Shown: positions 30,361-47,448 of the stretch, in pieces
Position numbering within the stretch: the first letter of the stretch is position 1
Layout: every line of letters starts with the position of its first letter
From: an uncultured virus (IMG/VR IMGVR_UViG_3300032320_000771)
Taxonomy: Duplodnaviria; Heunggongvirae; Uroviricota; Caudoviricetes
Length of the DNA stretch: 64,000 bases
Reading direction: 5' to 3' (one strand)
IMG/VR virus record: IMGVR_UViG_3300032320_000771
Notes under the pieces: generated by a model
What the model was told of the DNA's origin: nothing
Databases searched by the model: none
Seen by the model: the letters and a program-made list of their open reading frames with translations, nothing else
Position numbers and translations under genes: made by a program

Positions 30361-30394
30361 AAATTTTTTAAGTTTATTAAACATATAAAGTTTA
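30361..30394. promoter_or_regulatory. tandem imperfect palindrome AAATTT-TTT-AAGTTT / TAAACAT-ATA-AAGTTTA
   Basis: Overlaps the stop of the 1121 aa gene; near-identical to 37587-37603. Confidence 0.5.
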
Positions 30395-33300
30395 GTCCAT
30401 AAATGGAAACCATGAATTAACATAAACATATCCAGGATGATTTGCTTCCCCACCTTTTTTCCTTTTAGAATACATTCCCATACCAATTTGTGAATTTGCA
30501 CCTGTACTAGAAGCTGTACTGGTTCCTGCAGATGCTTTAGCACAATCTCTTAATAATGCTTCACTCATGCCAGGATTATTTTTCTTACACTCATCATATG
30601 CTTTTTGCCATGAATTAGCACTAGAACCAGCATTAGGATTAGTTGTTTTTTCAGTAGGGTTATACTCCATTCTACCACCTACTCCTGGAGATACTTTATA
30701 GTTAGGATACATTTGATTTAATGCATCTGTTTGCCATCTATTAGTAATTGCGTTAGTATAGTAGTTTCTCAAGTTATTTCTCATTGCCAATTTAGCATTA
30801 TCAAACTGTTGATTAGCAACTGTATTTTGATCATACAATCTTTGAGCATTAGCTTGTTTTAACATGCTTTCTTGATTAGCAATGTCAGTTCCTTTTAACT
30901 CAAATTGATTTGCTATATTAACATTAGCATTGTTATACTTAGAAAGTATGTCCGCAGCATTTTTAGCAGCTTGTCCCTGTACACTTGCAGACCTTGCAGA
31001 CAATGCTTGTGGTCCTGCAAACTGAGCCATACCTTGTGTTTGTATATTGGCTTGTTCAGCATTAGCAGCAAGTTCTCTTGTGGGATCTAAAAAGGCTGGT
31101 CTTGGTTTTTGTAATTCTCCAGCAGGAGCCCAAGGCATATACTTTTTAACTCCCATTAAGTCTCCAAATGCACCAGTAGTTTTAATTGTATCTTGTAACC
31201 ACCATTCAGCTGGAGGTCCAGGAATATCTAAATCTTCTTCTTTTTCACATGGAGGACAAGTACCATCTGCATTTCTAGGTTGTGTTATTTCAGTTTGATT
31301 ACCTTGCTCATCTGTTACAACACAAGGACAAGGATTTTCTTGAGGTGGATTTTTACATAAATCTGGATTACATTGTTTTGTATTTGGATCAAATCTACCA
31401 TAATTTGGTTTAGTAGAATCATCACATTGACAACCAGGATCTTCAATATCTTTATATACAAACTTTTGTTCTCCAACAACAATTTTTTCACCAGAAGTTG
31501 TATCACCACGAGTTGTAAACTGACCCCGCATTAAGTTACCAGCTCCTGTTTTTGTATACCAATTATTATTTTTATAATCATATGTATCATCAAGTGGAGA
31601 AATTTTATTTCCCATTACTCCATATAAAGCCCCCATTGATGATTCATCAGCTGCACCTACATTAGCCATGTTTACATTTCCTAAGAAATTATACATAGCA
31701 TATTTAGTGTCAGGGTCTGTATAAACTCCTTTTTGGTAATTGTCATAAGTTTTTGCATAACCATGCATAGTTGCTTGTTGCAAAACTCTATTTCTTCCTT
31801 TTTGATCTAATGGTACATTAAGTCCTTGTGCTAGAGATGCAATATTTGTCCAACCTTTATTAGTTAAAAATTTAATGGCATCAGTAGCTTCTTGCAAAGT
31901 ATACGCAGCTCCTGTTTTTGGATTTATATATCCTTCAGAAACAACTTTTGCTGGAGTATCTAATTTATCCCCAACATCTGAATATAATTGTGGATCAATT
32001 TCATTTGCTTCAAATATTAAATTTGTTCTATTTAAGTTTAATGCTGCATTAATAATTTCTTCTTCATCTGGATCTGCACCATATAAGTTGCTCCATTTTC
32101 TATTTGGATCTAAAGCACCAGTTTTTCCTTTCCAAGCAGCAGGATCATTAATAGCATATTTAGTATTTTTAATAATTTCAGCCCTTACCTTTGGATCTTT
32201 TAAGTTTTTTTCAATTAAATAATATTGAGCAGCTGCAAGTCTACCAGCGTCAGTAGATGGAAAACCTTTTAAATCAGTAATGTCTTTACCTGAAGGAACT
32301 TGAAATCCTTGTGATTCTACAGTTTGTGTAATAACTTTTCCTGTATTTGGATCTTTTCTAGTTACTGTTATTTCAGCATTAGGATTATTATTTTTTGCCA
32401 TCCAAATTTCTTTTTGAATTTGGTCTTCTGTTTTACCAGTTGAATCAATAACAATTCCATTACCAGCTTTTATTAAAGGTTTAGTTCTACCTTGATAATT
32501 TTGTGACATACCAGTTCCCATAGGCATACCATAGTCTGCTTCTGGAAGTTCTTCTTCATACTCTGGTTCATCATAAAATGGCATATCATAACCACCCATT
32601 GACATACCATACATAGCCATTGGTGGTCCTTGTTCTTGTGGTTGTTGAGCCATCATTTGCTCTTGACCACCTTGCATCTGTTGCATTACTTGTTGAACAA
32701 TGCCAACAGCCTCTTCTTCAGGAACACCTAGTTCAATAAATATTTCTACTATAGTTTCTGGAGGAAGTTGATTCTGCATTAAACTCATCACAACTTCTTC
32801 TGGATCAGCTCCCTGTTGTAACGCAGCTCCTACCTCTTGAACTATTTCCATCATGCCACCATCACCTTGTTCTTGTTCCATCATTTCTGGTGGAACTTGT
32901 GCCATGCCTTCTTGTGCTCTTCTTAAGTTTCTATAGCCACCATACATCATCATCTCTTCAGGAGATGGTTGTTGCATTTGTTCTTGTGGTTGTGCAACTG
33001 GTTGACCCTGATTTATTTGTTGAGCTTCAGCAGCTTGTTCATCAGAATATTCATCCTGCATAGTTTCATCAGCATTTTCTTTTTGCTTATACTTTGCTTC
33101 TATCTGATCTTTAAGAGCTACTATTTCTTGTTTAGGTGCAATTTGTTCTTCAGTAATTCCTTTAGCTTCCATACAAGGTCTAGCTACTGCTGGGATGCCT
33201 TGTGGAAATCCTTTTTTAGCTTCTTGTGCAAGAGCAAGACATCCAAGTTTTACTACAAACTTTTTAATCATTAACTCAGCTGTCTCTCTGTCTAATTTAT

Positions 33301-33757
33301 CTGACTCAGGATCTTCTAGAATTTTTCTATATTTCTGGATGTCATATTGTTTAGCTAACTGAGCTGGAGTATAAGCTTTATTTGTTCCTGCCTTACCAAA
33401 CATATCTAGTATTTCAGGATCTTTTATCTTCATACCTCTAGTATCACTAAAGATAAAAGTGTCATCAGGAAGGTTTAATGGTACTCCGCCAGAATGGTGT
33501 CTTGGTCCTTTGATTATTTGATGCTCTGGCATCCCATCACCATTGATATCTCCATATACTGTTTCTCCTCCTTCTGCTTCTAAGTTAGCTTCATCTCTTG
33601 GAACAGCTGTGATATACTTACTTTCTCTAAGTTTAGGTTTACCAATGTATGCATTATAGTCTGCACCACCCATTGCTGGTACATCATTAACTAATGCTCC
33701 TTGAACTTGGTATCCAGTTCTAGCTTTAGGTATTTTTTTAATTTTAACTTTTATCAT
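30392..33757 (-). CDS. putative virion cargo protein (1121 aa) with EAEGGE...GPRHHSGG...FIFSD N-terminal domain and Q/M/E-rich linker
   Basis: Conserved-looking N-terminal motif and a DxNxDG loop (GDINGDG); xxGG/LPxAxxG motifs; small Cys cluster; Q/N/A-rich helical C-terminus. Confidence 0.7.
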   Translation of the reverse strand: MIKVKIKKIPKARTGYQVQGALVNDVPAMGGADYNAYIGKPKLRESKYITAVPRDEANLEAEGGETVYGDINGDGMPEHQIIKGPRHHSGGVPLNLPDDTFIFSDTRGMKIKDPEILDMFGKAGTNKAYTPAQLAKQYDIQKYRKILEDPESDKLDRETAELMIKKFVVKLGCLALAQEAKKGFPQGIPAVARPCMEAKGITEEQIAPKQEIVALKDQIEAKYKQKENADETMQDEYSDEQAAEAQQINQGQPVAQPQEQMQQPSPEEMMMYGGYRNLRRAQEGMAQVPPEMMEQEQGDGGMMEIVQEVGAALQQGADPEEVVMSLMQNQLPPETIVEIFIELGVPEEEAVGIVQQVMQQMQGGQEQMMAQQPQEQGPPMAMYGMSMGGYDMPFYDEPEYEEELPEADYGMPMGTGMSQNYQGRTKPLIKAGNGIVIDSTGKTEDQIQKEIWMAKNNNPNAEITVTRKDPNTGKVITQTVESQGFQVPSGKDITDLKGFPSTDAGRLAAAQYYLIEKNLKDPKVRAEIIKNTKYAINDPAAWKGKTGALDPNRKWSNLYGADPDEEEIINAALNLNRTNLIFEANEIDPQLYSDVGDKLDTPAKVVSEGYINPKTGAAYTLQEATDAIKFLTNKGWTNIASLAQGLNVPLDQKGRNRVLQQATMHGYAKTYDNYQKGVYTDPDTKYAMYNFLGNVNMANVGAADESSMGALYGVMGNKISPLDDTYDYKNNNWYTKTGAGNLMRGQFTTRGDTTSGEKIVVGEQKFVYKDIEDPGCQCDDSTKPNYGRFDPNTKQCNPDLCKNPPQENPCPCVVTDEQGNQTEITQPRNADGTCPPCEKEEDLDIPGPPAEWWLQDTIKTTGAFGDLMGVKKYMPWAPAGELQKPRPAFLDPTRELAANAEQANIQTQGMAQFAGPQALSARSASVQGQAAKNAADILSKYNNANVNIANQFELKGTDIANQESMLKQANAQRLYDQNTVANQQFDNAKLAMRNNLRNYYTNAITNRWQTDALNQMYPNYKVSPGVGGRMEYNPTEKTTNPNAGSSANSWQKAYDECKKNNPGMSEALLRDCAKASAGTSTASSTGANSQIGMGMYSKRKKGGEANHPGYVYVNSWFPFMD

Positions 33758-33765
33758 TTGTAATA

Positions 33766-36700
33766 TTATAAATATTCAACTTGTCCGCCAGCTTTTAAAA
33801 ATTGTTGTAGTTCTTCAGGAGTCATGTAAACTTCTTCTTCTTCCATATATGGATCTGTATACCCGCCATCTTCTAAAAATCCACCGTATGCTAAGAACCC
33901 GCCAGTTGCTGCTCCAGGATAATTTCCAAAAGTAGAGAAACTATTATTTTCACTTCCTTGTTCAGGACCTCTGAATCCAATGTTTTGACCAATATCTTGT
34001 TGGTCTCCCTTATGAGTTTGATTACTAATAGGTACTTGTCTTAGTAAGTTAGTTGCTTGATATGTGGTAGCTAAGCTTCTAGGATTGTTTTGTAATCTAT
34101 TAATGTATCCAGAAGTAGCATTTAGTCCAGCATTAAACACATTATTAAAAGCTTCTCCGTCCATTGTAGTTACTTTTCTATACTGTGTTGGATCATAATA
34201 ATTTGTATCATGTTTTTGATCTTGATTAGGATTTGCAAACATGTTACTATTTAATGTTGTTTGATCTCTAAAATCCGTCACAGGTATAAATGAATTATCT
34301 ACCATATTATTTTGAGGAACATTAGGATTATATTCATATGGTGAAACATTTGAACTAGCTAAATTTATATCTCCTTGAGAAGGATCAGATATACCACCAA
34401 TGTCATATTTTGGTTGAAGCAGTGCACCAAAAGGTAAACTTCTTGTTAAGAACTTCCGCATGTTGCTAGGTTCACCTCTACCAGAATCTCTTGCCATTAA
34501 CATTGGTAAAACTCTGTATCTATCTTCTGTACCAAAGTCTTTACTAAATTGTCTTAAATTTTTTCTACTATAAGGGTTATCTCTTCTACTCATTTTTGGA
34601 GCGGTAGTAAGATAACTTCTAAATATAGGATTCCATGGTAAAAGAGTATTTGCCATACTAGGTCTTCCTTGTACTACTCTTGGTTTATATACCGTTTTCA
34701 TAAGAGGAACACACTGTTGATACTTTTCACTCCACACAGATCCTGGAGGACATGATTTTCCCCAATGCTCTTTAATTAAATTAGGATCATCTAAATCAAG
34801 CCACTGTTTATCTTCACCTCCTTGAGGAGTTTGACCTATAATATATTGTCCACCTGATCCTCCTGGTACTATGTGACCATTACCTGCTTCTGGTAAACTA
34901 TATGGTTCATAAAAGTCTGCCTCATCACCACCACTAATAAATTTAGTAAGAGGATTTTTAGAATCCATATCTATAAAACCACCATGTTCTGCAAATTGTT
35001 GTTGCATTTGTTGTGCTGGATCTTGATCTTGACCCATAAAGATATTCATGAGTTGTGGATCACCAGATTTTTGAACAGCATTATATAACTCTTCAGTTGC
35101 AACTTTGTCAGCTTGTGCTTTTAATTTAGGAAAAAAACCTTTCTTTTTAGTTACATCATTTTTAAGATTGTCCATTCTATTGCCCTTACCAAATTCTCCA
35201 CCCGGTGCAAACTTAGACATTACATTTTTAACAAACTGTTTTTTCTGAGCCCCTCCTTTTTTATAATCAGGTGCTAGTGTACCCCAACCTTTATCATTAA
35301 TGGTATCTCCATTCTCAATAAGCATACTATCTTTATCATATCCAGATCTAGTAACTCCAAAGTTTCTATCATTACCAACTCTAGTTCTACCTTCAAGATT
35401 TATATTTTCTTTAAGAATTGATTCTTTTTGCCCTTTGTCGGTTATATCGTCTTTATCTGGTTGACTTAAGAATTGATTATAACCTAAATATCCTAGACCA
35501 CCAAGTATACCTGCATACTTTAAAAAGTTTGCACCTGTTTGAAAATTACGATTTTTTAATAAATTATAATCTGCATACTGAGCACCAAAAGGTTGATCTC
35601 CAAAAGTCATTCCTCCAGGAGCTTGTGGTCCTATTTCTCTTTGAGCACCTAAGAACTGTGTTTTAATATTACTTGCATTTGGATAAAATTTACTTCTTGC
35701 TACAAATCCTGGGTATGTAAAAGGTAAACTCATTGGTGAAAACACAATTGGCTTACCAATCATATTCCAAGCTGTATTCCAACCAGATACTGGTTCTTTT
35801 TTTAATGGGTTTTCAGAAATAATTTGCGGATATGTAGAAAGATCTAATCCGGGATACTTAGCTGTAAAAGGAAATCTATATGGAGAGTTATACCAATTTA
35901 ACTGATTACCCATATAATAGTTTTTATCAACTGTCTCTAAAGGTAATTTTGTTTTAGGATCAATTATTTCTTTTGTCTTAGGATCTATAATAAGTTCATC
36001 TTTTATTGTTAAAGCTTTCTTATTATATCCTTTTAATCTAGTTGGAACTTCTGAAACAATTTCTACTTTAAACAACCCATTCTCATCTTTTGTAAATTTA
36101 AGTTTACCATTGTTTTGTCTATGGATACTTAAAAAATCTAACTCAGGAGAAATTGATTCTGGAATTCCAGTATTACGTAATTCTGATAATTTATTAAGAT
36201 CTAACTCTGCAGATTTCTTTTTACCCTTAGCTAATAAAGCATCTAACTGTTCTGTATTCTTTAGTAAAAAATCTGCAAGAGATGGGTCAAGATTAAAACC
36301 TAATCCTGTATTAAATGATCCGTCTGCATTTTTTTGTAAAACAGATGGTTCATATTTATCATTTTCAATAAGCGCATTAATATCAGTAATAATCTTTGTG
36401 GTTGTTGTAGAAGGTGCAACTTCAGCTCTCCACTTCTCTCTCCAGTTTTGTGGTCTTACTGTATTTATTAATGTTCCTAAATTTTCTACTTGTCTACCAA
36501 CAACTCCTCTATCTGATATAGGATTTTTTCTAGCATAAAAGTTTTGATATTTTTGCCATGTGGATGGTGCAGTAACAGTTTCTTGTGGTGTTACAATTCT
36601 TTGAGGCCCAGTGTTTTCTACAACAGGAATTTCAGTACTTGTTGTTCCAGCTGTTGGAGCTTCAGTTTCTGTAGGTGTTTTTTCTTTTCTTGGTCTACCA

Positions 36701-37542
36701 CGTTTTCCTTTACCTTTACCAGGACCACCTCCAGCAAATTTATGTAAACCACCATGTTTGTTAGCAGGTAATAAATCTGTAGGTATACTACTTTCATCAG
36801 CTACTCCTCTATAGTTACCTAGATAATAATTTAGATCTGGTGTTTGTGGAAAGTTTTGTGCCCCTGGAGTAAATTTAATAAGTCTACTTAAGTCAAATGG
36901 AATTTGATCTTCAGTAGATAATTGTCCCGGATTACTGTACTGATCTAATATATCTTGTTCTGCTGAATCAGCATTATCAAAATAGTTTGGATAATCATAA
37001 TCTAATTCTCCACCCTCATCATAGTATCCACCATACTGCTGAAAAGTACCTTCTTGCGCATACTCTTCAGTACCAGGGTCAACACCACTTGCCATATCTG
37101 ATTCTGATAATGCAAGTTCTTCATCTTCATTTGGAGTACCTACATTAGGAGTTGCTGTTTTTGCGGGCTCTGGTGTTTGTGGATTATTATTGTTTGCATA
37201 GTCATCCTCTTCTTCATCTTGATTTAAGTATGCTGGATCTTTATGTCCTTGCTCAGCAAGTTTAGTCATTACAGTATTAATGATCTTAAATGCCATTTCT
37301 TGATCAACACCATACTTAGTAACTAAATTTTCAAAGACCATGTTTGGTTCCATACCATCTCTTAAGTTAGCATATGTATCCAACATAATAACTTTCATTC
37401 TTTCTTGCATGTTATTATTTGAATTCATTTGCATACCCATTTTTGCTTTTGGAAGAGCTTTATTTAAAAAGTTAGCTGTCTTATTATAGTAACCAGGTTT
37501 TTCTCCCGGACCAGCTTTTCTTATTCTAACAGATTTTTTCAT
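33766..37542 (-). CDS. modular putative cargo protein (1258 aa) with AT-hook, a hydrophobic segment and many [FY]xxGG motifs
   Basis: KRGRPRK AT-hook (36685-36705); FLKYAGILGGLGYLGY hydrophobic stretch; CPPG..W...QQC minidomain; C-terminal MTPEELQQFLKAGGQVEYL. Confidence 0.75.
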   Translation of the reverse strand: MKKSVRIRKAGPGEKPGYYNKTANFLNKALPKAKMGMQMNSNNNMQERMKVIMLDTYANLRDGMEPNMVFENLVTKYGVDQEMAFKIINTVMTKLAEQGHKDPAYLNQDEEEDDYANNNNPQTPEPAKTATPNVGTPNEDEELALSESDMASGVDPGTEEYAQEGTFQQYGGYYDEGGELDYDYPNYFDNADSAEQDILDQYSNPGQLSTEDQIPFDLSRLIKFTPGAQNFPQTPDLNYYLGNYRGVADESSIPTDLLPANKHGGLHKFAGGGPGKGKGKRGRPRKEKTPTETEAPTAGTTSTEIPVVENTGPQRIVTPQETVTAPSTWQKYQNFYARKNPISDRGVVGRQVENLGTLINTVRPQNWREKWRAEVAPSTTTTKIITDINALIENDKYEPSVLQKNADGSFNTGLGFNLDPSLADFLLKNTEQLDALLAKGKKKSAELDLNKLSELRNTGIPESISPELDFLSIHRQNNGKLKFTKDENGLFKVEIVSEVPTRLKGYNKKALTIKDELIIDPKTKEIIDPKTKLPLETVDKNYYMGNQLNWYNSPYRFPFTAKYPGLDLSTYPQIISENPLKKEPVSGWNTAWNMIGKPIVFSPMSLPFTYPGFVARSKFYPNASNIKTQFLGAQREIGPQAPGGMTFGDQPFGAQYADYNLLKNRNFQTGANFLKYAGILGGLGYLGYNQFLSQPDKDDITDKGQKESILKENINLEGRTRVGNDRNFGVTRSGYDKDSMLIENGDTINDKGWGTLAPDYKKGGAQKKQFVKNVMSKFAPGGEFGKGNRMDNLKNDVTKKKGFFPKLKAQADKVATEELYNAVQKSGDPQLMNIFMGQDQDPAQQMQQQFAEHGGFIDMDSKNPLTKFISGGDEADFYEPYSLPEAGNGHIVPGGSGGQYIIGQTPQGGEDKQWLDLDDPNLIKEHWGKSCPPGSVWSEKYQQCVPLMKTVYKPRVVQGRPSMANTLLPWNPIFRSYLTTAPKMSRRDNPYSRKNLRQFSKDFGTEDRYRVLPMLMARDSGRGEPSNMRKFLTRSLPFGALLQPKYDIGGISDPSQGDINLASSNVSPYEYNPNVPQNNMVDNSFIPVTDFRDQTTLNSNMFANPNQDQKHDTNYYDPTQYRKVTTMDGEAFNNVFNAGLNATSGYINRLQNNPRSLATTYQATNLLRQVPISNQTHKGDQQDIGQNIGFRGPEQGSENNSFSTFGNYPGAATGGFLAYGGFLEDGGYTDPYMEEEEVYMTPEELQQFLKAGGQVEYL

Positions 37543-37560
37543 TTGCTATTATATATATTA

Positions 37561-37570
37561 AATATACTAA
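37561..37570 (-). promoter_or_regulatory. putative phage late promoter motif TTAGTATATT
   Basis: Identical 10-mer upstream of the genes starting at 37542, 55238 and 57326; one mismatch upstream of 62053. Confidence 0.6.
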
Positions 37571-37586
37571 ATTTTAATTTATTCAT

Positions 37587-37603
37587 TAAACTTATAAAGT
37601 TTA
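37587..37603. promoter_or_regulatory. perfect palindrome TAAACTT-ATA-AAGTTTA
   Basis: 7-bp inverted repeat with 3-nt spacer, overlapping the stop of the 1454 aa gene and 17 nt upstream (on the minus strand) of the TTAGTATATT motif. Confidence 0.55.
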
Positions 37604-40600
37604 CTCATCTTCTATAATGTATCCACCTTTGATATATTGATCTATTTCTTTTTTTGTAAGTTTTGCAGAAACATATCCCCCATCTTTGTATGCTTCAATT
37701 ATACCTTCTCCTTTACTATAAGATTCTGGTATATTTAATTTTAACCAATCATTCCCAAATTGATCTGTGTGAGACATAACATTAGATTTACCAAATAATT
37801 TAATGTAATGTTTTTTATAATCATTATAAACACTAGATGCTTTGTCATTACCTTGAATTTTTGTAGATAACTCAGGAGTAGGAATATAAAGATATTTCTT
37901 TCCTTGTTCTGCTGCATATTGCAACATCTCTTGAATTAGTCTTTTTTCAGTAGACTTTTTATTAGTCATTAAGACTCTCTTTTGAGGTAAGTTTCTTTTA
38001 ATGACATCAGCTGCTTCACCAGTAATTGGTTCTCTTTCTACTGCAAAATCAACATCTGGAGAAAAATAAGTACCAGTTGATCGTTCTTCAAATTCTGGCA
38101 AGAATGCTTCTAAATCAAATTCCCCACTATCATTCTTTCTATATCTTTTTTTCATTTTAGAAACCTGCTCAGCAGCATCTGATTGTATTTGTGATGCATA
38201 AAGAGCATCAGGCTCATATGCATTTTCATAAACATGAGCATGTGCTAATGTTTCATATGTATTACCATGCTCTCTTGACCCATAACCAAATTCATTTAAA
38301 TTACTAAATTGAATAGTTCTTGGATTTGAAAGTTGAAAATCTGCAAAAGAATCTTTATTAGCTAAATAAGATTCATTTTTTTTATTAAGAACAGCCATGT
38401 CATTTTCAAGACTTTGTTCAAGTCCTTTAAGATATTCTGGACTTATAATTTGTTTGCCACCAGAATCATTTATAATAGTAGATTCTCCTTTTTCAAGAGC
38501 AGATTTTACTTTTTCAATTTTTGCATTTTTACGTTCAAGTATAAGATTTTTTGTAATACCTAAGTCGGTACCATATTTATCAATTGCATGTACTACATTA
38601 GCATTTAATCTATTATCTCCTGGCTTGTAATTTCTATATAATTTTCTAAAAGGATCTGGGTATATATCTTGTAAACCATAAGTAGAAGCGGGAACTTCTC
38701 TATAGTCACCAAGTTCTGGATCAAATAAATCTTGATTATGTAAACTACCTTCTATAAAATCAAATGGAACTTCTGTTCTTTCCAATGCTGGAATTGCATC
38801 TTGTACATTCTTCAGTAATTCTTTAGCATCCATGTGTGTAATATCTGATCCCATACCCTGCCATAACTCAGGATTGTTAAATAATGATTCTACAACTTCA
38901 TCACCACCTGCTGTCTTACGTAATATATTAAGTGCTTGATCAAAGTTTATCTTACCTGTCCTAGGATTAATTGCTTTGTATAAAGGACTGTTAGGATTAG
39001 CAGTTACATTTAAATTTAAACCAGTTGGTGGAACTGTTGTTTCATAAACATATGCATCTAAGTTTGGTACAGCCTCAGCATTTTTTTCTGAAAAGTCAAA
39101 AGATAATTGATTAGCTTTTGGTTGCTCTGGTAAAACATTTATTCTTTGAGCACTTGGAAAAACTGATCCCGGAGTTACAGATGGTTGAGATTCAACTACC
39201 TGAACAGGACTTGATTCATAAACAAAAGGTAATTCTGGAGTTGTTATAACTTCTCTTTCTCTTTCACGTTCCTTAGAAATTTTTTCTTTTGCACGTGCAC
39301 GTCTTCCCCTACCTGGTCCTGGTCCACCATATTTTTGTTGTGGTAGCATAGGATCTTGAATGAATGGATCTAAGTATCTTGCATCTCTAAGATTTTTATA
39401 ACCATGTCTACCTATCATTAATCCCATTCCTAATGGTAATAAATTTTCATTTATTTTTTTCTGATCTCCTTGTTGCAACCCTTGGTAAATATTTTTTCCT
39501 GCTTCAATTGCAAAGCCTGGATTATCAGGATCTAAGTTAAATGCATCCATACCAAATTTTGTAAGTAATGCATTACCTGGGGTTACTAAATTTCTAGCAA
39601 CTTCATAGGTTGGAAACTTTGATAAAATAGGTGCAGCTTTAGATAACTTTGGTAAAAGTCTAGCTCCCGACAATGCTTGTAAACTTTTTGAAAAAGGTAC
39701 AGAAAAGAATGCATTTAAAGCAACATCTCCAGTATTAATTTCTGGATTATCATTTACATAATTTTGATAAGCAGTAGAGCCTGTTTGGGCAGCCCAATGA
39801 AAAGGAGAAAATAAGTTTGTTACTTCTGAAATAGGATTTTGCAATTCTTGAGCTTTATCATAAAACAATTGTCTTCCACCTGGACCATAAGCTTGAGCCC
39901 ATGCATCTGCTTCCATAGGAGTAGCTTGATCTGTCATAGTACTTACCATTGGATCTTGCCATTCTCCAGATGTCCATTTCTGTAATGTATTTAAAGGTTG
40001 ATTAACAAATGCCATTGCTTGATCTACACCAAATAAAAATGGATTCATATTTTTCTGAGATCTATTTTGAAGAAACTTAGCTTGTTCTAATTCCTTTTTA
40101 GATTTATCCTTATATAGATTTATAGCTTTATTCTTAAATGTTTCTCCAAGTAAAGTCTGACCATAGGATGGTTGCTCACGATAAGTTTTTAAGAAATTTT
40201 TTGCTTCAGGAGATCCTAAAAAGTTTTGGAAATTACCATACTGATCAGATAAACTTTTACCTTCTCCTCTATACTCATCAGTGTTCTGTACATTTGCTTC
40301 CGTTGGTAAAATATTATTTAAGAAAGCATAATTTAAATATGACTGTGCTTCTTGATCTATTGTTTTATTTTTTTGATACTTAAAAGTATCAGGACTTTTG
40401 TATGCTGTAATGTTTCTATCACCACTTAGTTTTCCATATGATATATCTGTATCACCCATTTTAAATTTTAGGTTCTTTACTTTATTGTTGAACTCTTCTA
40501 AAATTTTAGCTTTTTCTTTTTGAAACTTATCTGGATTACTTGAAATATCTTTGTATGCTTTTATGTTAGCAGGATTTACATCAATACCCATATCTATTTC

Positions 40601-41965
40601 TGTAAGGGCATTCATTTTATTAACTGCATCATTATAAGCTTCAGAATATGCTGGAGTTACATTATCTGTTAAAGGATTAATAGGAGATAAACTGCCGGAC
40701 CAGGTTGACCCGTAAACATTATCAAACAATCTATTATTTAATGAGGTATAGTTATCTTGCGGATTAGCTGGAGCATCTAATTCTTTATGTATAGTATTTA
40801 TATCTTTCTCATATGTTTTAAGTATTTTTTCTTCAGGGTCACCGTCTTTTCTATTTGGAAATCTATTGGCAAAAATGCTTACATCATTATTGTTAATTGT
40901 GGTATTTCCATTTTCATCAGTTTTAAATAAACTTTTATCTATTGGTTTCCAATCAAAGTTCCAAGTGAATTTATTTTTATAATCATTTTTAAAATTTGAT
41001 TTATCATTAAACACTGAAAAATTATCATTGTTCCATTGGTTTCTGCTAGTATACTGAAAGACATTTCCTTTTGTATCTTGTTTATACATTACCCCCTGAT
41101 CATCTGTAAAATAGATGTCAGCATTTTGCATTACATCCAGAGAATCACTTATGTCTTTAAATTTAGTGTCTATTCCTTTTTTAGTACCCCAACCTTCTTT
41201 TTCTAATTCTTTTCTGGCATCTTCAGCAGACATACCAGAACTTATTTTTTTCTGGAGTTCTTTTGTTACATTAGCATTATAATCTTGATCTGCATAAGCT
41301 ATTATGTCTGAAAATTCACTTTGAATCTGTTTATCATCTAGTCCATGATATTTTTTAAATTCATATGGTCTAACACCTTGATTGTATATTAAACTTGTTA
41401 TTACACCTTTGGGATATGCATTAACTTTTCCATCTGAACCTGGTTCAAAATAATAAACAGAAGAAAGCTCATTTAAACGAGGCTTTAAATATTTATCAAA
41501 TTGCTCTTGTGTATATGTTTGAAAGGGCTCAAGCTTCTTATGTTTATTTCCTTTTTTTAATGCATTACCTACATATCTACTAAACTTATCCTCAAATATT
41601 TGTTGCCTTTCTCCACTCTTTTCTTCAGAAGTTAATTCTGCTATTTGTTTCTCCTGTGCTAATTCTTTTTCATAATTATAATCTTCTTCTTTCCATTGTA
41701 ATTGTCTAAAGGTTTTTGAATCTACACATTCTCCTTTATACGGTTGAAATCCTGGAGGGCAATCTTCTGGTTGTAATGTTTCATATAAACCATCTTGTGA
41801 TTCAAGTTGAGGTGCATATATTTTACTGAATAGTCTATCTATATTTTCATCTTGCGTAGGTTCAGTTTGATACATAGGATCTACTGTATACTCAGTAGGT
41901 TGAGTGGGTTTATTTATGCCACCATTACTAAATTGTGGAATACTTGTAATTCTATACTTTGCCAT
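37601..41965 (-). CDS. modular putative cargo protein (1454 aa) with C-terminal 'H...QIQSD...AAEQG' polyvalent-protein-like module
   Basis: Long ORF coupled by TAATG; modules separated by FSNGG, KYGG and YKDGG; C-terminal LTKKEIDQYIKGGYIIE. Confidence 0.75.
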   Translation of the reverse strand: MAKYRITSIPQFSNGGINKPTQPTEYTVDPMYQTEPTQDENIDRLFSKIYAPQLESQDGLYETLQPEDCPPGFQPYKGECVDSKTFRQLQWKEEDYNYEKELAQEKQIAELTSEEKSGERQQIFEDKFSRYVGNALKKGNKHKKLEPFQTYTQEQFDKYLKPRLNELSSVYYFEPGSDGKVNAYPKGVITSLIYNQGVRPYEFKKYHGLDDKQIQSEFSDIIAYADQDYNANVTKELQKKISSGMSAEDARKELEKEGWGTKKGIDTKFKDISDSLDVMQNADIYFTDDQGVMYKQDTKGNVFQYTSRNQWNNDNFSVFNDKSNFKNDYKNKFTWNFDWKPIDKSLFKTDENGNTTINNNDVSIFANRFPNRKDGDPEEKILKTYEKDINTIHKELDAPANPQDNYTSLNNRLFDNVYGSTWSGSLSPINPLTDNVTPAYSEAYNDAVNKMNALTEIDMGIDVNPANIKAYKDISSNPDKFQKEKAKILEEFNNKVKNLKFKMGDTDISYGKLSGDRNITAYKSPDTFKYQKNKTIDQEAQSYLNYAFLNNILPTEANVQNTDEYRGEGKSLSDQYGNFQNFLGSPEAKNFLKTYREQPSYGQTLLGETFKNKAINLYKDKSKKELEQAKFLQNRSQKNMNPFLFGVDQAMAFVNQPLNTLQKWTSGEWQDPMVSTMTDQATPMEADAWAQAYGPGGRQLFYDKAQELQNPISEVTNLFSPFHWAAQTGSTAYQNYVNDNPEINTGDVALNAFFSVPFSKSLQALSGARLLPKLSKAAPILSKFPTYEVARNLVTPGNALLTKFGMDAFNLDPDNPGFAIEAGKNIYQGLQQGDQKKINENLLPLGMGLMIGRHGYKNLRDARYLDPFIQDPMLPQQKYGGPGPGRGRRARAKEKISKEREREREVITTPELPFVYESSPVQVVESQPSVTPGSVFPSAQRINVLPEQPKANQLSFDFSEKNAEAVPNLDAYVYETTVPPTGLNLNVTANPNSPLYKAINPRTGKINFDQALNILRKTAGGDEVVESLFNNPELWQGMGSDITHMDAKELLKNVQDAIPALERTEVPFDFIEGSLHNQDLFDPELGDYREVPASTYGLQDIYPDPFRKLYRNYKPGDNRLNANVVHAIDKYGTDLGITKNLILERKNAKIEKVKSALEKGESTIINDSGGKQIISPEYLKGLEQSLENDMAVLNKKNESYLANKDSFADFQLSNPRTIQFSNLNEFGYGSREHGNTYETLAHAHVYENAYEPDALYASQIQSDAAEQVSKMKKRYRKNDSGEFDLEAFLPEFEERSTGTYFSPDVDFAVEREPITGEAADVIKRNLPQKRVLMTNKKSTEKRLIQEMLQYAAEQGKKYLYIPTPELSTKIQGNDKASSVYNDYKKHYIKLFGKSNVMSHTDQFGNDWLKLNIPESYSKGEGIIEAYKDGGYVSAKLTKKEIDQYIKGGYIIEDE

Positions 41966-44900
41966 TATTTTACTATTTCAAATGTATAACCGTTTTCTTT
42001 TAATTTTTGCATAGTAGCTTCATCTACTTCATCACCTAACTGATATTCTCCACCATCTTCAAATTTAAATCTAAATGGTGAATAAGGTATTTTTATAACA
42101 TCAGATGTATTTTTCCCAACCATTGGTTCTTTAATCTGTTCTAAATAACCCAAATAACTTTGTGCAGCATATCGAGCCGCAGTTTCTTTATCCAGGTTTT
42201 TATTTACAAGTCCAGTTTTAGGATCAACCCAGTAGTTTATATAAACACTTGGACGGTAATCATCTGATGATTTAATTTGTGCAAATTCAGGATCTTCTTT
42301 GAATAAATTAATATTAGTTTGAGGATCACTAAATTCACCTTTTTTTATTTTGTCATTTACATAATCAATTATTTCTTCATTAGTATTATTTTCTAATAAG
42401 TTATAAACATTTTCTTTTTCAGCTTCAAGTTCTAAATGTCCTGGTTTATAATATGTAGCTACAGGATCAAATACTTTTTGTCCGGGATTGCCAATGACTG
42501 CAGTTTCAGGACCTTGCAATGAATAAAAAGTACCTCTAGAATTTTTATCAATTAAACTATCAGTAATAATATCACCTGATTTAGCACCTTCTTTACCAGA
42601 TGTTTTATCTACAGTTTTACTATTATCAGATGTGTAGTTTTCTAAATCAACAAATCTTTGCAGCATATCAGAAGCTGAACCTGAATAATCAAATGGATAT
42701 CTAACTATTGATTTATATGGTCCATAAAGATCACCAAAATTACCTTTCTTAATAGCTTTAACATATGGTGTATTTCTATTGGCAAAAGTATACAAAGCGT
42801 CTAAACTATCTGGTGTTCCTTGTTTTAAATAATCTTGTTTTAAATAAGATGGATATTTTCCAGTTTTTAACTTAACTCTTTCTGCTGCTGTCATTTGATC
42901 ATTTGCTACAACATAATCAGTAGGTCCTTCTCCATATCTAAAAACATTAACATATTCAGTTTCGTAAGGAAGACTACTTAAACCAGATCTTTGACCATAT
43001 CTAATATTAGGAACATGTGTTGCTGCATATAAAGCTTGTCCAACTTTATCATTTTCTAAATCATATTTTACAATGGCATCTAAATCTCTTGGAGCAAGAT
43101 CTGTTTTTGTTCCTGAAGTAGAGATACCATAATCTTTAGCTTCAGTAGACCTCATAAATGTTAATGCATCTTGTATACCTCTACGTGTTGCTAAATCTAA
43201 AAGATTAGGATATGTCATCAAAGTCATTGGATTTAATGTTTGTGAAATTATCTCTTTATCTTTTAAAGTATTAATAACATCATAATTTTCTTTATCCATT
43301 AATTGACCAAGATTTTCACCACTTATCTTAGTGATCATATCTTGTACTGGATCAACTTTTACAGGTTCTTTAGGTACTTTTTTTTCTTTTGTTATCCGAC
43401 CAAAGCGTGCTTTAGGAATATCTGTTTTATTACTTAATGAAGGTACAGAAATATCTTCTACTATATAACCACCCTTAACATACTTGTCTATTTCTTTTTG
43501 AGTTAGTTTAAGTTGTATATCTCCACCGTCTTCTTTAAAATACATATTTTTACCTCTAGGATTAGATACCCCATCTGGAAGTAAATTGTTATCAGATTCA
43601 AAACCTATTATTGATTTTGCCCAAGACTCTGGTAAAAAACTAAGCGATGCCCCTTCATTATTATTATATATATCTTCAGCAGATTCTCTTAATTTATTAT
43701 ACCAAGGTCTTGTATCTCTAGGATCAGAAAGTGTTGATATCTCATGTAAAATGCCTAATGCATTTGCTCCTAAAGGACCTATTTTTTGTGCAGTATAATA
43801 ACCTGCCATGGGATGTCTGAAGTTATCTACCGGATCTTCTTTTCCTCCACGTTGTGCTGCTTCTCTTGCAGCTCTGTCCATAGGATTTCCTAACCATTCA
43901 TTTACTGTATCTTCTGTGCGTCTTAAGAATGTAGGTTGCTTTCTTGGTCGTAATGCTACTTCAGGCATGTTCAACATGTATGGTTGAAAGTCTGGATATT
44001 CTTCTAAGTATTCAGAATCAATTGGAGTTCTAGTTGTTTGGGGAAAACTTTCATCAGTAACATTTTTCCAACGTGTTTTTCTTTTTTTTCTTTCACCACC
44101 ATCTTTAAAATTACCGTAAACAGATGTATATTCTTCTGGGGTAATACCATATTCTTGTAAGTAAGCTTCATTTTGTTGTCTTACTTCATCTTTTTGTTTT
44201 TGATATTCTGACCATTGTCTCTCATATTCTTTTTGATTTTTTAAATCTCTAAGTGAAGAGGCACCTTTAAAATTAATTTTTCTTCCTTCTTGTTCTGCTC
44301 TTTCAATTTCTCCAGGGATATATTCACCATCTTCATTCTCATAACCTTCCATATAATCAGGATTATATCCTGTTAATCTTTGCACTAAAGCTGGTACAGG
44401 TCTATTAACATCTTTATCACCAAATTTAATATGACCTTTGCGATCTATTACACCCTTATCTCCAGTAATAAATCTTTTAATTTTTTGTATTGGTTTCTTA
44501 CCCTCAATAGTTGGAACTGACATTTGGTACTCAGGTTGCAAATAAAGAGGTGCATCTTCTGATGGTGTTGCTAAATCTAATTTAGGTATCATGTATTCAT
44601 CTGGAAGATCTATGTAATCATATTCCCTTTCAAATCTTGTTTCATGATCCGGCATATCATAAAAACCTTTATAGACACTTCCAAGGTTTTTTTCAATAAG
44701 ATTATAATCATCTTGTCTAGAAATTTTTTCACCGTGTCCATATGTACAATCTGGACATTCCTCTTCCTCTTCTCTTTTTGCATTTTTATATTCATCAAAA
44801 GTTGGGAGAACTGCATTATTATTTATGTCAGAATAATAGTTATATTCAGGATTTAAATATTCATCATTCCAGTTACCATCAAGTTCCTCTTCTATTTTTA

Positions 44901-47448
44901 AATCAGGATACTTAGCAAATGTTGCTAAGTTTTCTTTTTCAATTTCTTTTAGTTTTTTATATTGTTTAAATTTTTCAAACTCAAAATTGTTTTCATCAGG
45001 AACATAGTATATAGACTTATCTGCATTAAATCCTTTTGGTTTATTAGGATCTGCAACAACTTCATAATTTAAATCCGGATATATATCAAAACCACTTAGA
45101 GGCCAATTATTATCTGGACTAAGTATGCGTAATGTTTTTTGTTTTGAAATTAACAACGGCTCTCTATTTGCCTTATCTATTTCTTTTAGCGTAAGATCAT
45201 TTGGCCACCAAGGATATTCTTCTTGTTCTTCAGTTGGTACTGTTTTATTACCCTTCACATAAAATTCTGCTTTTTCTCTATAAGCTTTTGATTTACATCT
45301 TCCTTCTTGTGCATCATAAAAATAACCCTCTGGACAAGTTGTATTTTTTCTTATACATCTTTTTGTTTTTTCATCATATGTAAATCCTTCTGGGCATTGT
45401 GGACCACCATCAACAAATTTAGACAACCCACCATTTCTAAATCTAATAGGCTCATTACCAAATAACTGTGTACCTCTCTTGTCTGTGTACATTTGAGGCA
45501 TTTTTATTTTTTGACATCTACATTTTTCACATGGTCTCTCATAACCTTCTGGACAATCTCCTCTTCCTATTACTGTACCATTAGGATTCAATTGAATCTG
45601 TGGTGGATTAATTTGATTGTCAGTTTCTGTAGGAGTATCTTCATATGACATATCTCCTGTATACTCTTCATCATACTCTTGATCATTTGCATAATCTTCA
45701 TATGTCTTTTTTCTTTTAATGCTAGGTAGATTTAGATCTTTTAATTTATCTATAGCACCTTCAATTGGAACAGCATATCTTATATTACCATATGGTTTTG
45801 GTGTTATTGGTATACTATTATTAGCACCTTCTTTTCTACCACCATAAATATTTTTTATACCAGCGGTAACTGAAGCAACACCAGAAAGAGGACCAGATGT
45901 AGCTTTAAATGGTTTTAGTTGAAATGTTGCTTCAGGACTTAAAAGAGAAATATTATACATGTCAGCTCGGTCAGATTTATTTCCTAAAAACTCATCAGCT
46001 GTTGTTGTACCTTGTTGTATATCTTGAGCATATAGATCTAATATTTTTTGTGTTTGTTCATCATTATATTCAGGGCGTTGCCTTATTATAGCATTAAGGA
46101 TATTTAATTTAGGTATAAAAGCCATATCCCCTTGTCTTGTTAAGCCCTTATCAAAATATCTATTAGGTCTTATTGTTGCATTGTTTTTTCTTTTACCAAA
46201 AACACCCATTATACTTGTATCAAATGAACCATATAAACCTGGCTCTGGTGCGTATCCTGCATTAAAACCTAATGATCCTGTAAATGGACCACTACTGCTA
46301 TCCCCAAAAGCATTACCATAGATATCATAGCCAACATTTGCAGTAAGAGGAATACCCTTCTTATAAATTTGTTTAGCTCCTTCTAAATTTTTTGCCGCAT
46401 TATATTGATTAACTTGCGTTGTAGATAATTGTGACAGAGGTGTATTTGTATAATCAGATACATCCTGCAGGAATGCATCATATTGTGGATTAGGGCCAGC
46501 CATTGCTGGATCATTATAAGGTAAGCTATACTCCCCCATAAAACTTCTAGTTGGATTTGTCAGACTTTGAGCATCTGTTTTATATGGTCGTCCTATTGTA
46601 AAAGTTAATGGGTTACCAGAAACATCCATTTTCTTAAATAGATCTGGTGTTGTATAAGATAAACTATAATTTGGATTTACATTAAAATCAGCAACTTGTC
46701 CATATGCCGTTCTAAAATCAAATGGTGTAAATGTTAAAGCTCTATCTTTTCCTAATCCTGTTAAACCATATGAAGCTTTTGGTAAATCTTTTGTCTTTGC
46801 TCCACCATCCGCATAATACTTTGCATTAGGATCAAAGATTTTATTCTTTCTTGATTTAGACTTTTTAAATAATGGATTTTGAGCAAAGAATTTATTAGTT
46901 GCTTCAAAACTTCTAGAATATGCTTTTGAATTTTTTTTACTAGGAATCTCTGGTCTTTTAGAAGAGCCTCCTTTTTTAAATTTATCTGGAGTTTCTAGAT
47001 CATCAATATTATGATTGTAATAGTTAGAAGTTAATTCTTCTCCAGGGTTTATATTTCTTTTGGCTAATAAAAGTATATGATCATTATTATCTACTTCTTG
47101 TATGTTTGGACTTTCACTATGATTGTAATAACCTCCTAATTGTGTAGACGGGAATGGTGCTTGATACTGTTGCCCGTTTTTTGTAAAATTTTTTCTAATG
47201 TGGGAAACACCGATAACATCTCCTTTAGCAATTGGCTCTTGACTAAACACACCTTTACCATGTATTTTAGATGGACCAATTTGTATAGACTTATAAACAG
47301 GAGCATTTACTCCATTCTCACCAGTTATAACATTATCTTTTTTCTTTTGCGTAGATGAGTTGTTTGTATAATCTTTATTATACTTAGGTTGCTTCTTAGA
47401 CTTATTTAAATTCCTAATTGCGTCAATTATTACTTTTTTATTGTACAT
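41965..47448 (-). CDS. modular putative cargo protein (1827 aa) with N-terminal SET methyltransferase domain, CPxG Cys minidomains and a DUF6973/SAA-like module
   Basis: SET motifs SKIHGKGVF, YYNHSESPN and INPGEELTSNY (~47017-47289); DNFRH...HE...EDIYNNNEG module (~43650-43840). Confidence 0.8.
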   Translation of the reverse strand: MYNKKVIIDAIRNLNKSKKQPKYNKDYTNNSSTQKKKDNVITGENGVNAPVYKSIQIGPSKIHGKGVFSQEPIAKGDVIGVSHIRKNFTKNGQQYQAPFPSTQLGGYYNHSESPNIQEVDNNDHILLLAKRNINPGEELTSNYYNHNIDDLETPDKFKKGGSSKRPEIPSKKNSKAYSRSFEATNKFFAQNPLFKKSKSRKNKIFDPNAKYYADGGAKTKDLPKASYGLTGLGKDRALTFTPFDFRTAYGQVADFNVNPNYSLSYTTPDLFKKMDVSGNPLTFTIGRPYKTDAQSLTNPTRSFMGEYSLPYNDPAMAGPNPQYDAFLQDVSDYTNTPLSQLSTTQVNQYNAAKNLEGAKQIYKKGIPLTANVGYDIYGNAFGDSSSGPFTGSLGFNAGYAPEPGLYGSFDTSIMGVFGKRKNNATIRPNRYFDKGLTRQGDMAFIPKLNILNAIIRQRPEYNDEQTQKILDLYAQDIQQGTTTADEFLGNKSDRADMYNISLLSPEATFQLKPFKATSGPLSGVASVTAGIKNIYGGRKEGANNSIPITPKPYGNIRYAVPIEGAIDKLKDLNLPSIKRKKTYEDYANDQEYDEEYTGDMSYEDTPTETDNQINPPQIQLNPNGTVIGRGDCPEGYERPCEKCRCQKIKMPQMYTDKRGTQLFGNEPIRFRNGGLSKFVDGGPQCPEGFTYDEKTKRCIRKNTTCPEGYFYDAQEGRCKSKAYREKAEFYVKGNKTVPTEEQEEYPWWPNDLTLKEIDKANREPLLISKQKTLRILSPDNNWPLSGFDIYPDLNYEVVADPNKPKGFNADKSIYYVPDENNFEFEKFKQYKKLKEIEKENLATFAKYPDLKIEEELDGNWNDEYLNPEYNYYSDINNNAVLPTFDEYKNAKREEEEECPDCTYGHGEKISRQDDYNLIEKNLGSVYKGFYDMPDHETRFEREYDYIDLPDEYMIPKLDLATPSEDAPLYLQPEYQMSVPTIEGKKPIQKIKRFITGDKGVIDRKGHIKFGDKDVNRPVPALVQRLTGYNPDYMEGYENEDGEYIPGEIERAEQEGRKINFKGASSLRDLKNQKEYERQWSEYQKQKDEVRQQNEAYLQEYGITPEEYTSVYGNFKDGGERKKRKTRWKNVTDESFPQTTRTPIDSEYLEEYPDFQPYMLNMPEVALRPRKQPTFLRRTEDTVNEWLGNPMDRAAREAAQRGGKEDPVDNFRHPMAGYYTAQKIGPLGANALGILHEISTLSDPRDTRPWYNKLRESAEDIYNNNEGASLSFLPESWAKSIIGFESDNNLLPDGVSNPRGKNMYFKEDGGDIQLKLTQKEIDKYVKGGYIVEDISVPSLSNKTDIPKARFGRITKEKKVPKEPVKVDPVQDMITKISGENLGQLMDKENYDVINTLKDKEIISQTLNPMTLMTYPNLLDLATRRGIQDALTFMRSTEAKDYGISTSGTKTDLAPRDLDAIVKYDLENDKVGQALYAATHVPNIRYGQRSGLSSLPYETEYVNVFRYGEGPTDYVVANDQMTAAERVKLKTGKYPSYLKQDYLKQGTPDSLDALYTFANRNTPYVKAIKKGNFGDLYGPYKSIVRYPFDYSGSASDMLQRFVDLENYTSDNSKTVDKTSGKEGAKSGDIITDSLIDKNSRGTFYSLQGPETAVIGNPGQKVFDPVATYYKPGHLELEAEKENVYNLLENNTNEEIIDYVNDKIKKGEFSDPQTNINLFKEDPEFAQIKSSDDYRPSVYINYWVDPKTGLVNKNLDKETAARYAAQSYLGYLEQIKEPMVGKNTSDVIKIPYSPFRFKFEDGGEYQLGDEVDEATMQKLKENGYTFEIVK

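Follow-up and report, generated by a model that had tools for sequence, protein, structure and literature searches.

Introduction

Few known phages are as abundant as the crassviruses. Their protein cargo amounts to megadaltons, and the mechanism of its loading and ejection is described as not understood by Bayfield et al. (2023, PMC10172136). According to the same account, the genes that follow the muzzle gene of crAss001 encode virion cargo, i.e. gp45 (C1), gp46 (C2) and the RNA-polymerase-associated gp47, gp49 and gp50; the cargo is carried in the capsid and tail and is thought to be ejected partly unfolded. The present study concerns a 64,000-nucleotide stretch of an uncultured virus (IMG/VR record IMGVR_UViG_3300032320_000771), the whole of which is called the window below, and four large proteins encoded at positions 30392..47448 on its minus strand. 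Each of these proteins is a chain of unrelated modules that can be exchanged, and the modules are separated by a recurrent short peptide, referred to as the seam, which is built of the motifs [FYM]xxGG and LPKAxxG; conserved leaders and tags are found at the chain ends. No description of the seam motif was found in the crAss-like cargo, polyvalent-protein or polyprotein literature searched, and the string LPKAQ occurred only in unrelated papers. The seam pattern is real and apparently undescribed.

Several known systems resemble this arrangement in part. In polymorphic toxins, a short conserved peptide (VENN of CdiA, PxxxxDPxGL of Rhs) lies at the border of cassettes that are exchanged between strains. 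Those proteins have one border each, ahead of a single C-terminal toxin, and depend on bacterial secretion, whereas the chains of the window have many borders, belong to a phage and are unrelated in sequence. The internal proteins of T4 carry capsid-targeting sequences and prohead-protease sites, and adenovirus and African swine fever virus possess GG-specific proteases. The likeness lies in a peptide label on packed internal proteins and in GG at the putative P2-P1 positions; in contrast, no matching protease was found here, the hydrophobic residue is at P5 instead of P4, and the label is C-terminal instead of N-terminal. The docking domains of split polyketide and non-ribosomal peptide synthetases are terminal elements that are present when the chains are split and lost when they are fused. 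The same pattern is seen in the homologue P0234 (below), but this is an analogy only, as the sequences are unrelated.

Polyvalent proteins are giant virion-delivered chains of unrelated effector domains (Iyer et al. 2017, PMC5512222), to which the SET domain of the window and the VanY, SLT, YkuD and histidine phosphatase domains of homologues are comparable. They also contain zincin-like peptidases and LPD-type domains; HExxH motifs with sub-cut-off Pfam matches and LPD-bearing ESM Atlas neighbours were obtained here. In the available text of PMC5512222 the words 'linker', 'Gly-Gly' and 'crAss' do not occur, and the concept as presented there includes neither a universal junction peptide nor terminal address tags.

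Location of the cargo genes

Every long open reading frame (ORF) of the window lies on the minus strand. The muzzle protein gene (47448..52958, minus strand, 1836 amino acids) was identified by Pfam crAss_MUZ with an E-value of 7e-31, and the closest named relatives of its product, from Cellulophaga, Flavobacterium and Leptolyngbya phages, share at most 29% identity. Given the muzzle and ring protein matches and this low identity, the source is a distant, uncultured crAss-like phage. The muzzle gene is followed by eight ORFs of 1827, 1454, 1258, 1121, 1052, 2441, 3789 and 2563 amino acids, the first four of which are the motif-bearing proteins.

54007-54672, minus strand: ring protein 2 (Pfam), just upstream of the muzzle gene
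52961-54007, minus strand: ring protein 1 (Pfam), just upstream of the muzzle gene
41965..47448, minus strand: cargo gene 1, 1827 amino acids; conserved N-terminus, SET domain, cassette string, one internal and one terminal tag
37601..41965, minus strand: cargo gene 2, 1454 amino acids; colinear with R1506 of relative L001 at 68% identity
33766..37542, minus strand: cargo gene 3, 1258 amino acids; ends conserved, middle mosaic
30392..33757, minus strand: cargo gene 4, 1121 amino acids; conserved and colinear, likely counterpart of crAss001 cargo protein C1

The cargo genes are located directly downstream of the muzzle gene on the same strand, as in crAss001, and their order matches gp44-gp46 of that phage. 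The four large proteins are probably packed in the particle and injected. Stop-start overlaps were found between the muzzle gene and gene 1 (47448) and between genes 1 and 2 (41965), and genes 3 and 4 are separated by 8 bases; such close spacing would fit a coupled expression of the cargo chain.

Enrichment and composition of the seam

The first-pass annotation, made from the sequence alone, had listed 29 motif copies in the four proteins, and all 29 were found at their places in the four minus-strand ORFs. The expected counts were determined by 2000 within-protein residue shuffles of the four cargo proteins. The motif [FYM]xxGG was observed 19 times (3.93 ± 1.90 expected), [FY]xxGG 17 times (3.03 ± 1.73 expected) and [LI]P[KE]AxxG 6 times (0.03 expected), and these counts were reached in 0/2000 shuffles in each case, which confirms the proposed enrichment over a composition-matched background. 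GG by itself was hardly enriched (46 observed, 33.7 ± 5.4 expected, 34/2000 shuffles reaching 46), and therefore the signal is the aromatic residue at position -3 from the first Gly. F or Y occupied this position in 17 of the 46 GG, compared with a background of 9%. In the remaining 15 ORFs of the window (14,992 amino acids), five copies of [FYM]xxGG and none of LPKAxxG were present.

The enrichment extends to the mosaic homologues of gene 1 (120 listed of 130, 1019-2790 amino acids), in which 586 [FY]xxGG motifs were counted against 112 expected, with at least a 3-fold excess in 106 of the 120. Over 673 distinct contexts the motif core was K/Y/Q, Y/F/M, x, x, G, G, and the positions outside it carried little information. 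The spacing of LPKAxxG after GG, determined for 93 distinct contexts in the four proteins and the 120 homologues, was 1 residue in 48, 5 residues in 24 and 0 residues in 4. Every cassette ends with [K/Q/Y]-aromatic-x-x-G-G and the next one starts with [L/I]-P-K-A-x-x-G; therefore, the two motifs are the halves of one junction, aromatic-x-x-G-G-(x)-[LI]PKAxxG. Of the post-muzzle proteins of Cellulophaga phage phi17:2, only one (895 amino acids) has 4 [FYM]xxGG motifs; LPKAxxG was found in none.

The Gly codons of the seams (GGT 23, GGA 9, GGC 3, GGG 3) mirror the overall usage in the four genes and the flanking codons vary between the copies, which means that the constraint acts on the protein, not on the DNA. 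This bears on the explanation that the seams are a feature of the DNA, for instance the site of a recombinase or of a shufflon-like system, or that they arose by chance from the composition of Gly-rich proteins. Modules are indeed rearranged between relatives and the four proteins are somewhat Gly-rich, but the codon pattern and the failure of every residue shuffle to reach the observed counts make such an origin highly improbable, and it is disfavoured.

Exchange of modules at the seams

The first-pass annotation had placed the motif copies at module borders. In the comparison with homology breakpoints and AlphaFold domain borders the motif positions coincided with both, and the breakpoints and near-identical relatives bear out the view that in the four proteins the motif separates unrelated modules that can be exchanged. 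The features of gene 1 are as follows.

47020..47259, minus strand: SET domain, amino acids 64-143 (Pfam PF00856, E 3e-9)
46966..46980, minus strand: seam FKKGG, amino acids 157-161; alignment ends cluster at 156-163
46765..46815, minus strand: composite seam of YADGG, 5 residues and LPKASYG, amino acids 212-228; 25 long-alignment ends at residue 216, relatives diverging straight after GG
45403..45441, minus strand: double seam FRNGG / FVDGG, amino acids 670-682; alignment ends cluster at 670-682
44095..44109, minus strand: seam FKDGG, amino acids 1114-1118; next module replaced from GG on in P0005
43399..43539, minus strand: seam FKEDGG, internal tag (amino acids 1306-1333, i-E-value 1e-8 with the tag model described below) and IPKARFG (amino acids 1344-1350)
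42082..43305, minus strand: folded cassette, amino acids 1382-1789; AlphaFold2 block-mean confidence mostly 70-92, with dips to 53-69
41971..42063, minus strand: seam FEDGG, amino acids 1796-1800, and C-terminal tag, amino acids 1797-1826 (tag model i-E-value 1e-16)

In gene 1, 175 of the 495 internal BLAST alignment ends obtained with the 120 homologues were at most 3 residues from one of the 8 GG seams (3.1% expected) and 262 were at most 10 residues away (8.4% expected); since the hits are interrelated and shared seams help to stop alignments, this ratio is descriptive and has no probability attached. The corresponding value for gene 3 was 13 of 71 ends within 3 residues of a seam, compared with an expected 4.4%.

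Two identical loci with gene 2 (L001 and L002) were found in IMG/VR, whereas no locus was obtained there for gene 1 by pattern search, and no match to gene 2 was detected by tblastn among 50,697 phage records. In L001 genes 2-4 are colinear with those of the window at 66-69% identity; its gene 1 (67% identity) has the same modules in another order, with divergence directly after YYADGG. In relatives that are 90-98% identical, whole modules were deleted, replaced or inserted exactly at GG. The 460-residue module between YADGG and FVDGG is absent from P0006 (91-99% identical), where the two seams are joined directly, and P0008 has a different module after YADGG. In P0005 the module after FKDGG is replaced and a 400-residue cassette with HExxH is inserted between FEDGG and the tag, which is still at the very end. 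An insert of about 260 amino acids was found in P0245 directly after the FISGG of gene 3.

The predicted structures point in the same direction. In the AlphaFold2 model of gene 1 residues 1290-1827, the predicted local distance difference test score (pLDDT) was below 50 over 1290-1381, comprising the seam, the internal tag and IPKARFG, and over 1790-1810, comprising the next seam; these regions flank the cassette 1382-1789. The model of gene 4 had a pLDDT below 50 for residues 1-45, and residues 50-200 form a domain. No Foldseek match of the cassette 1382-1789 to the Protein Data Bank (PDB) was obtained at E ≤ 0.001. Regarding individual borders in gene 1, the SET domain does end ahead of FKKGG; the label 'DUF6973-like' for amino acids 1119-1309 was rejected, as no Pfam match was found even at E ≤ 2. 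The domains VanY, SLT, YkuD, His_Phos_1 and CBM_14 were detected in homologues.

The architecture is that of a cassette system with conserved ends, exchangeable modules and one conserved joint peptide, in which gene fusion and fission occur at the joints. From it follows a simple rule at the sequence level by which cargo and effector cassettes can be located and delimited in the genomes of uncultured phages.

The same data could be explained by reader-less caps, i.e. the seam would be a structurally safe module end with an aromatic anchor, a Gly-Gly hinge and a start strand. It would be retained because recombinants with their joint at this site fold correctly, and would be a side effect of cassette shuffling and not a signal. 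The breakpoints at the seams, the position of the seams in low-confidence linkers between folded parts and the fact that neither a partner nor a protease has been identified are in agreement with this. However, a 12-residue consensus over hundreds of unrelated cassettes (the 586 [FY]xxGG against 112) exceeds the needs of a hinge, the leaders and tags are far more conserved than the modules, and the varying codons show that recombination was not guided by DNA identity at the motif. This explanation is regarded as unlikely.

Leaders, C-terminal tags and gene junctions

The features of genes 2-4 are listed below.

41918..41932, minus strand: N-terminal FSNGG of gene 2, amino acids 12-16 (motif list)
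39323..39337, minus strand: seam QKYGG of gene 2, amino acids 877-881; a relative has SGG-E-LPKASLG at the same site
37607..37690, minus strand: seam YKDGG and C-terminal tag of gene 2, amino acids 1426-1453 (tag model i-E-value 2e-9)
37435..37455, minus strand: N-terminal LPKAKMG of gene 3, amino acids 30-36, within the conserved leader
36724..37041, minus strand: seams QQYGG, YDEGG and FAGGG of gene 3, amino acids 168-273; alignment ends at 264-274
34870..35265, minus strand: seams YKKGG, FAPGG, AEHGG and FISGG with LPEAGNG of gene 3, amino acids 760-891; alignment ends at 755-761 and 851-875
34393..34407, minus strand: seam YDIGG of gene 3, amino acids 1046-1050 (motif list)
33769..33894, minus strand: LAYGG, LEDGG and divergent acidic C-terminal tag of gene 3, amino acids 1217-1258; kept in 27 of 27 listed homologues
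33665..33757, minus strand: N-terminal leader of gene 4 with IPKARTG (amino acids 9-15) and PAMGG (amino acids 27-31); conserved, pLDDT below 50
33158..33610, minus strand: predicted C1-like domain of gene 4, amino acids about 50-200; block-mean pLDDT 70-91
32528..32950, minus strand: MMYGG, MSMGG and LPEADYG of gene 4, amino acids 270-410; conserved across homologues
30449..30463, minus strand: RKKGG of gene 4, amino acids 1099-1103 (motif list, homologue alignment)

Genes 1-3 end in a tag of about 28 residues after GG, which consists of a strand-like stretch, a helix [LM]-T-x-x-E-[IL]-x-x-aromatic and then G-[GY]-x-hydrophobic-E. A hidden Markov model (HMM) of the tag was made from 80 distinct C-termini. 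Within the window it matched the two copies in gene 1 and the one in gene 2; the C-terminal tag of gene 3 was below the threshold. Among the four proteins and the 120 gene 1 homologues, the tag was present in 116 of 124, with 109 terminal and 125 internal copies, the terminal count being partly circular because the HMM was built from those termini. In an independent search, 1.84 billion representatives were queried with the C-terminal 45 residues of gene 1 alone. It gave 45 proteins at E ≤ 0.001, and in 41 of them, which are 31-1956 amino acids long, the match ended at most 2 residues from the C-terminus. Nothing significant was found for the tag in Pfam and PHROGs; sub-threshold matches to DUF7210 (PF23843) occurred on 4 of 37 proteins, the best with an E-value of 0.003 against a 27-bit cut-off. 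In one protein of 223 amino acids (P0301), the cargo C-terminal tag comes after a polyprenyl synthetase domain (E 5e-27); this protein is either a true tagged enzyme cassette or a chimeric gene call.

For gene 4, 2028 homologues were found. It starts with a basic leader containing IPKARTG, and most columns of its first 120 or so residues are at least 90% conserved (121 sequences). The leader pattern was matched by 112 of 120 homologues, the others being six with variant residues, one fusion and one truncated sequence. The first 30-40 residues are likewise kept in genes 1 and 3. The combination of more than 90% conservation with modelled disorder in the gene 4 leader is as would be expected of a binding motif.

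The order found inside gene 1, i.e. GG, tag, about 10 residues and IPKARFG, recurs at the gene 2/3 and 3/4 boundaries, where a stop codon and a Met-leader are interposed. The protein P0234 (1805 amino acids) is a natural fusion of gene 3-like and gene 4-like proteins. At its joint the tag and the first leader residues are gone and the sequence reads ...YGQSGG-S-IKARTG..., which is a plain seam. Therefore, the tag belongs to the chain end, and the split and fused states are interchangeable.

Comparison with crAss001 cargo protein C1

In the VIA-align comparison of the gene 4 domain model with 48,161 chains, the portal-bound domain of crAss001 C1 (7qog_M) was ranked first. The match was weak, with a Z-score of 5.2, a root-mean-square deviation of 4.0, 87 aligned residues and 25% identity, and the Z-score of the next row was 4.5. 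Foldseek gave nothing against the PDB at E ≤ 0.001 for the gene 4 model, and the best BLAST E-value between gene 4 and gp45 was only 0.36. The Pfam families crAss_CARG1 (PF25725) and crAss_CARGO2 (PF25712) had no match in the four proteins at E ≤ 2, and none in the gene 4 N-terminus at E ≤ 10, whereas the controls gp45 and gp46 scored 2e-66 and 6e-219. Although weak, the fold match falls on the partner that would be expected, and gene 4 is a likely counterpart of crAss001 C1.

The gp45 protein has 6 aromatic-GG motifs compared with 2.6 expected, and 67/2000 shuffles reached 6. Its seams include those at residues 206-210, 260-264, 329-333, 424-428 and 559-563. The motif SAYGG ends four residues ahead of the helix 214-245, which lines the tail barrel, and NAFGG (424-428; AFGG 425-428) lies at the start of the stretch 425-552, which is described as one folded, compact portal-bound domain (Bayfield et al. 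2023, PMC10172136). If the model starts at 425, the NAFGG seam would be uncut in mature virions. Proteolysis, cleavage or a protease are never mentioned in the available text of that paper. On the virion gel of crAss001, the account of Shkoporov et al. (2018) gives 12 approximate band sizes from 15 to >300 kDa, while its text says thirteen bands. A likeness by eye between the tag and the gp45 segments 214-245 and 562-595 was rejected, as it was unsupported by the tag HMM.

The cargo of the two phages differs in several respects. The window has four proteins of 1121-1827 amino acids compared with two of 842 and 534 amino acids in crAss001, the seams are far denser and include the LPKAxxG half, and C-terminal tags are present. 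The published description of crAss001, in its available text, mentions neither the motif nor module exchange (PMC10172136).

Protease candidates

The first-pass annotation had offered two readings, namely effector modules released by a GG-specific prohead protease or a capsid-loading signal. The proteins are encoded among the cargo after the muzzle gene, and it is plausible that they carry loading or address signals, most of all in their C-terminal tags. The GG-specific or prohead protease, in contrast, was not found. No peptidase family was detected in the Pfam scan of the 19 window ORFs, the relative G001 (87% complete) contributed another 56 ORFs, in which a tail-fibre S74 chaperone was the sole one, and adenain (PF00770) was absent from two related records, the related records being incomplete. 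The S74 protein (L008 10776-11717, record G001) is tail-fibre-like with a Peptidase_S74 intramolecular chaperone domain and is unrelated to the GG seams.

The adenain site consensus, [MLI]-x-G-G, has its hydrophobic residue at P4. The conserved aromatic residue or Met of the seam is at P5, three residues before the first G, so that the seam consensus appears to differ from an adenain-type site. Double-glycine leaders are N-terminal, comprise about 15-25 amino acids ending in GG, have hydrophobic residues at -4, -7 and -12 and are cut by a C39 peptidase. This type was rejected, since the motifs here are internal or C-terminal with the aromatic residue at -3 and no C39 family was present among the ORFs scanned (19 of the window and 56 of G001).

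The only candidates for a protease are HExxH motifs, which occur in two giant cargo proteins encoded nearby.

17165..17179, minus strand: HEAWH, candidate zincin peptidase, amino acid 902 of the 3789-amino-acid cargo protein; weak Tox-MPTase4 match (E 0.009), below the cut-off
6147..6161, minus strand: HEFAH, candidate zincin peptidase, amino acid 784 of the 2563-amino-acid cargo protein; weak DUF4932 match (E 0.0065), below the cut-off

ESM Atlas neighbours of the HEAWH region carried LPD23 on 18-20% and LPD1 on 96% of members at scores of 0.91-0.93, and the scores of the other region were 0.78-0.80; these neighbours are a lead only. The 3789-amino-acid protein (8513-19882, minus strand) also has the two-barrel RNA polymerase motif DFDID at 12557-12571 (amino acid 2438), 1500 residues past HEAWH, and the same motif is given for phi14:2 gp66 (Drobysheva et al., preprint). 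A virion RNA polymerase thus seems to be fused to a zincin-like or polyvalent-protein region. The 2563-amino-acid protein (819-8510, minus strand) contains, besides HEFAH, a LysM domain at amino acids 2238-2265 (E 8e-6) and a weak adhesin-like HiaBD2 match, and it may be a cell-wall-directed cargo protein.

In relatives, cassettes with HExxH (HEISH, HELSH) lie between two seams, in L001 6071-11296 (amino acid about 740) and in P0005 (amino acid about 1960), where the window has other modules. Peptidase-like payloads therefore belong to the exchangeable set. The preprint of Drobysheva et al. calls fused virion proteins of some crAss-like phages 'likely cleaved' and assigns a zincin-like protease domain to phi14:2 gp65, a neighbour of the virion polymerase. 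For polyvalent proteins, processing by zincin-like peptidases was proposed by Iyer et al. (2017, PMC5512222), who also describe that the virion RNA polymerase of N4 carries such a peptidase domain, yet is packed unprocessed.

Proposed role of the seams and tags

The preferred reading is that the seams are uncut joints recognised in trans and that the leaders and tags are address labels, which we consider an evenly balanced proposition. The seams would stay uncut in the virion, and as flexible joints recognised in trans they would let the modules unfold, thread through the portal and tail and refold singly. The leaders and C-terminal tags would dock each chain at assembly to the portal, the tail barrel or a neighbouring cargo chain. 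At a gene boundary the joint recurs, expanded by a tag, a stop codon and a short Met-leader, and the fused and split forms interconvert in nature. As the machinery would read only joints and ends, any cassette between two seams would be carried along, which would explain the rampant module swapping; the cassette inserted in P0005 is placed ahead of the tag, never behind it. The uncut state is favoured because no fitting protease was found, one crAss001 seam is seemingly continuous, LPKAxxG occurs at native N-termini and the most conserved pieces are modelled as disordered.

Several points weigh against this reading. Repetition of a short motif at all module borders is typical of the cleavage sites of polyproteins, and neutral gene fusion and splitting at the seams would fit cleavage equally. 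HExxH motifs are present in the two neighbouring cargo proteins and in the relatives' cassettes, and cleavage of fused crAss-like virion proteins and a packaged zincin-like protease have been suggested in print (Drobysheva et al., preprint). The giant RNA-polymerase proteins, which are poor in seams, are presumably packed too, and therefore the seams do not serve as a loading signal in general. The argument from crAss001 is based on one atypical seam, with the aromatic residue at -1, and on a residue range from the paper; the 7qog_M chain has 126 residues compared with 128 expected for 425-552, and the tag HMM finds nothing in crAss001 gp45.

As cleavage sites, the seams would make the chains polyproteins that are cut after GG or before the L/I of LPKA by a phage-borne protease, most plausibly the HExxH (zincin-like) domains of the neighbouring giant cargo proteins. 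The cut would be made either inside the head once the cargo is packed or, following ejection, in the host, with the tag as a targeting peptide removed at the last GG. One motif per border, conserved mainly on the P side, the interchangeable fused and split forms (P0234) and the single tag per chain, always preceded by GG, would suit such processing, as would HEFAH and HEAWH with their weak metallopeptidase matches and polyvalent-protein-domain ESM Atlas neighbours and the HExxH cassettes in relatives. Every architectural fact is compatible with it, and the 'likely cleaved' statement (Drobysheva et al., preprint) and the zincin processing proposal (PMC5512222) are in line with it. However, no cysteine, adenain-type or prohead protease was present in the ORFs scanned, the HExxH matches were below the Pfam cut-offs, and LPKAxxG occurs at native N-termini without a preceding GG. 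Moreover, the N4 polymerase is described as packed unprocessed (PMC5512222), and the AFGG of crAss001 lies within one modelled domain, no processing being reported in the available text of the structural paper (PMC10172136). Cleavage is the main rival of the uncut-joint reading; it is considered possible but doubtful, and of lower probability than uncut joints.

An extension of the uncut-joint reading is an address code for a protein train. Each tag would bind the leader of the chain that follows, or sites on the portal or tail barrel. The separate chains would then enter and leave the particle in gene order as a single ordered string, the last being the portal-bound C1-like protein; the covalent seam (GG-x-LPKAxxG) would equal the split joint (GG-tag, stop, leader-LPKAxxG). 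This is a speculative proposal to which a low probability is given. If true, any module between two seams would be delivered to the host, which would make the locus a natural plug-and-play injection system. The seam peptides and end tags are mutable handles for asking whether the chains are cut, what reads the seams and tags, and whether foreign modules can be delivered between seams.

Other genes of the window

Four consecutive ORFs of the virion module without family matches (55620-57326, 57347-59563, 59734-60303 and 60380-62053, minus strand) have Cys-rich tails, several with CxC or CC pairs, and may encode disulfide- or metal-stabilised fibre or head-decoration proteins. A Dps/ferritin-like protein (62116-62574, minus strand; DUF5856, E 7e-15; PHROG 'starvation-inducible regulator') is encoded within the structural module and is kept in the relative G001. 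The ORF at 63284-63634 (minus strand) codes for a very basic protein of 116 amino acids that contains a KKGG motif and may be a DNA-binding protein inside the head.

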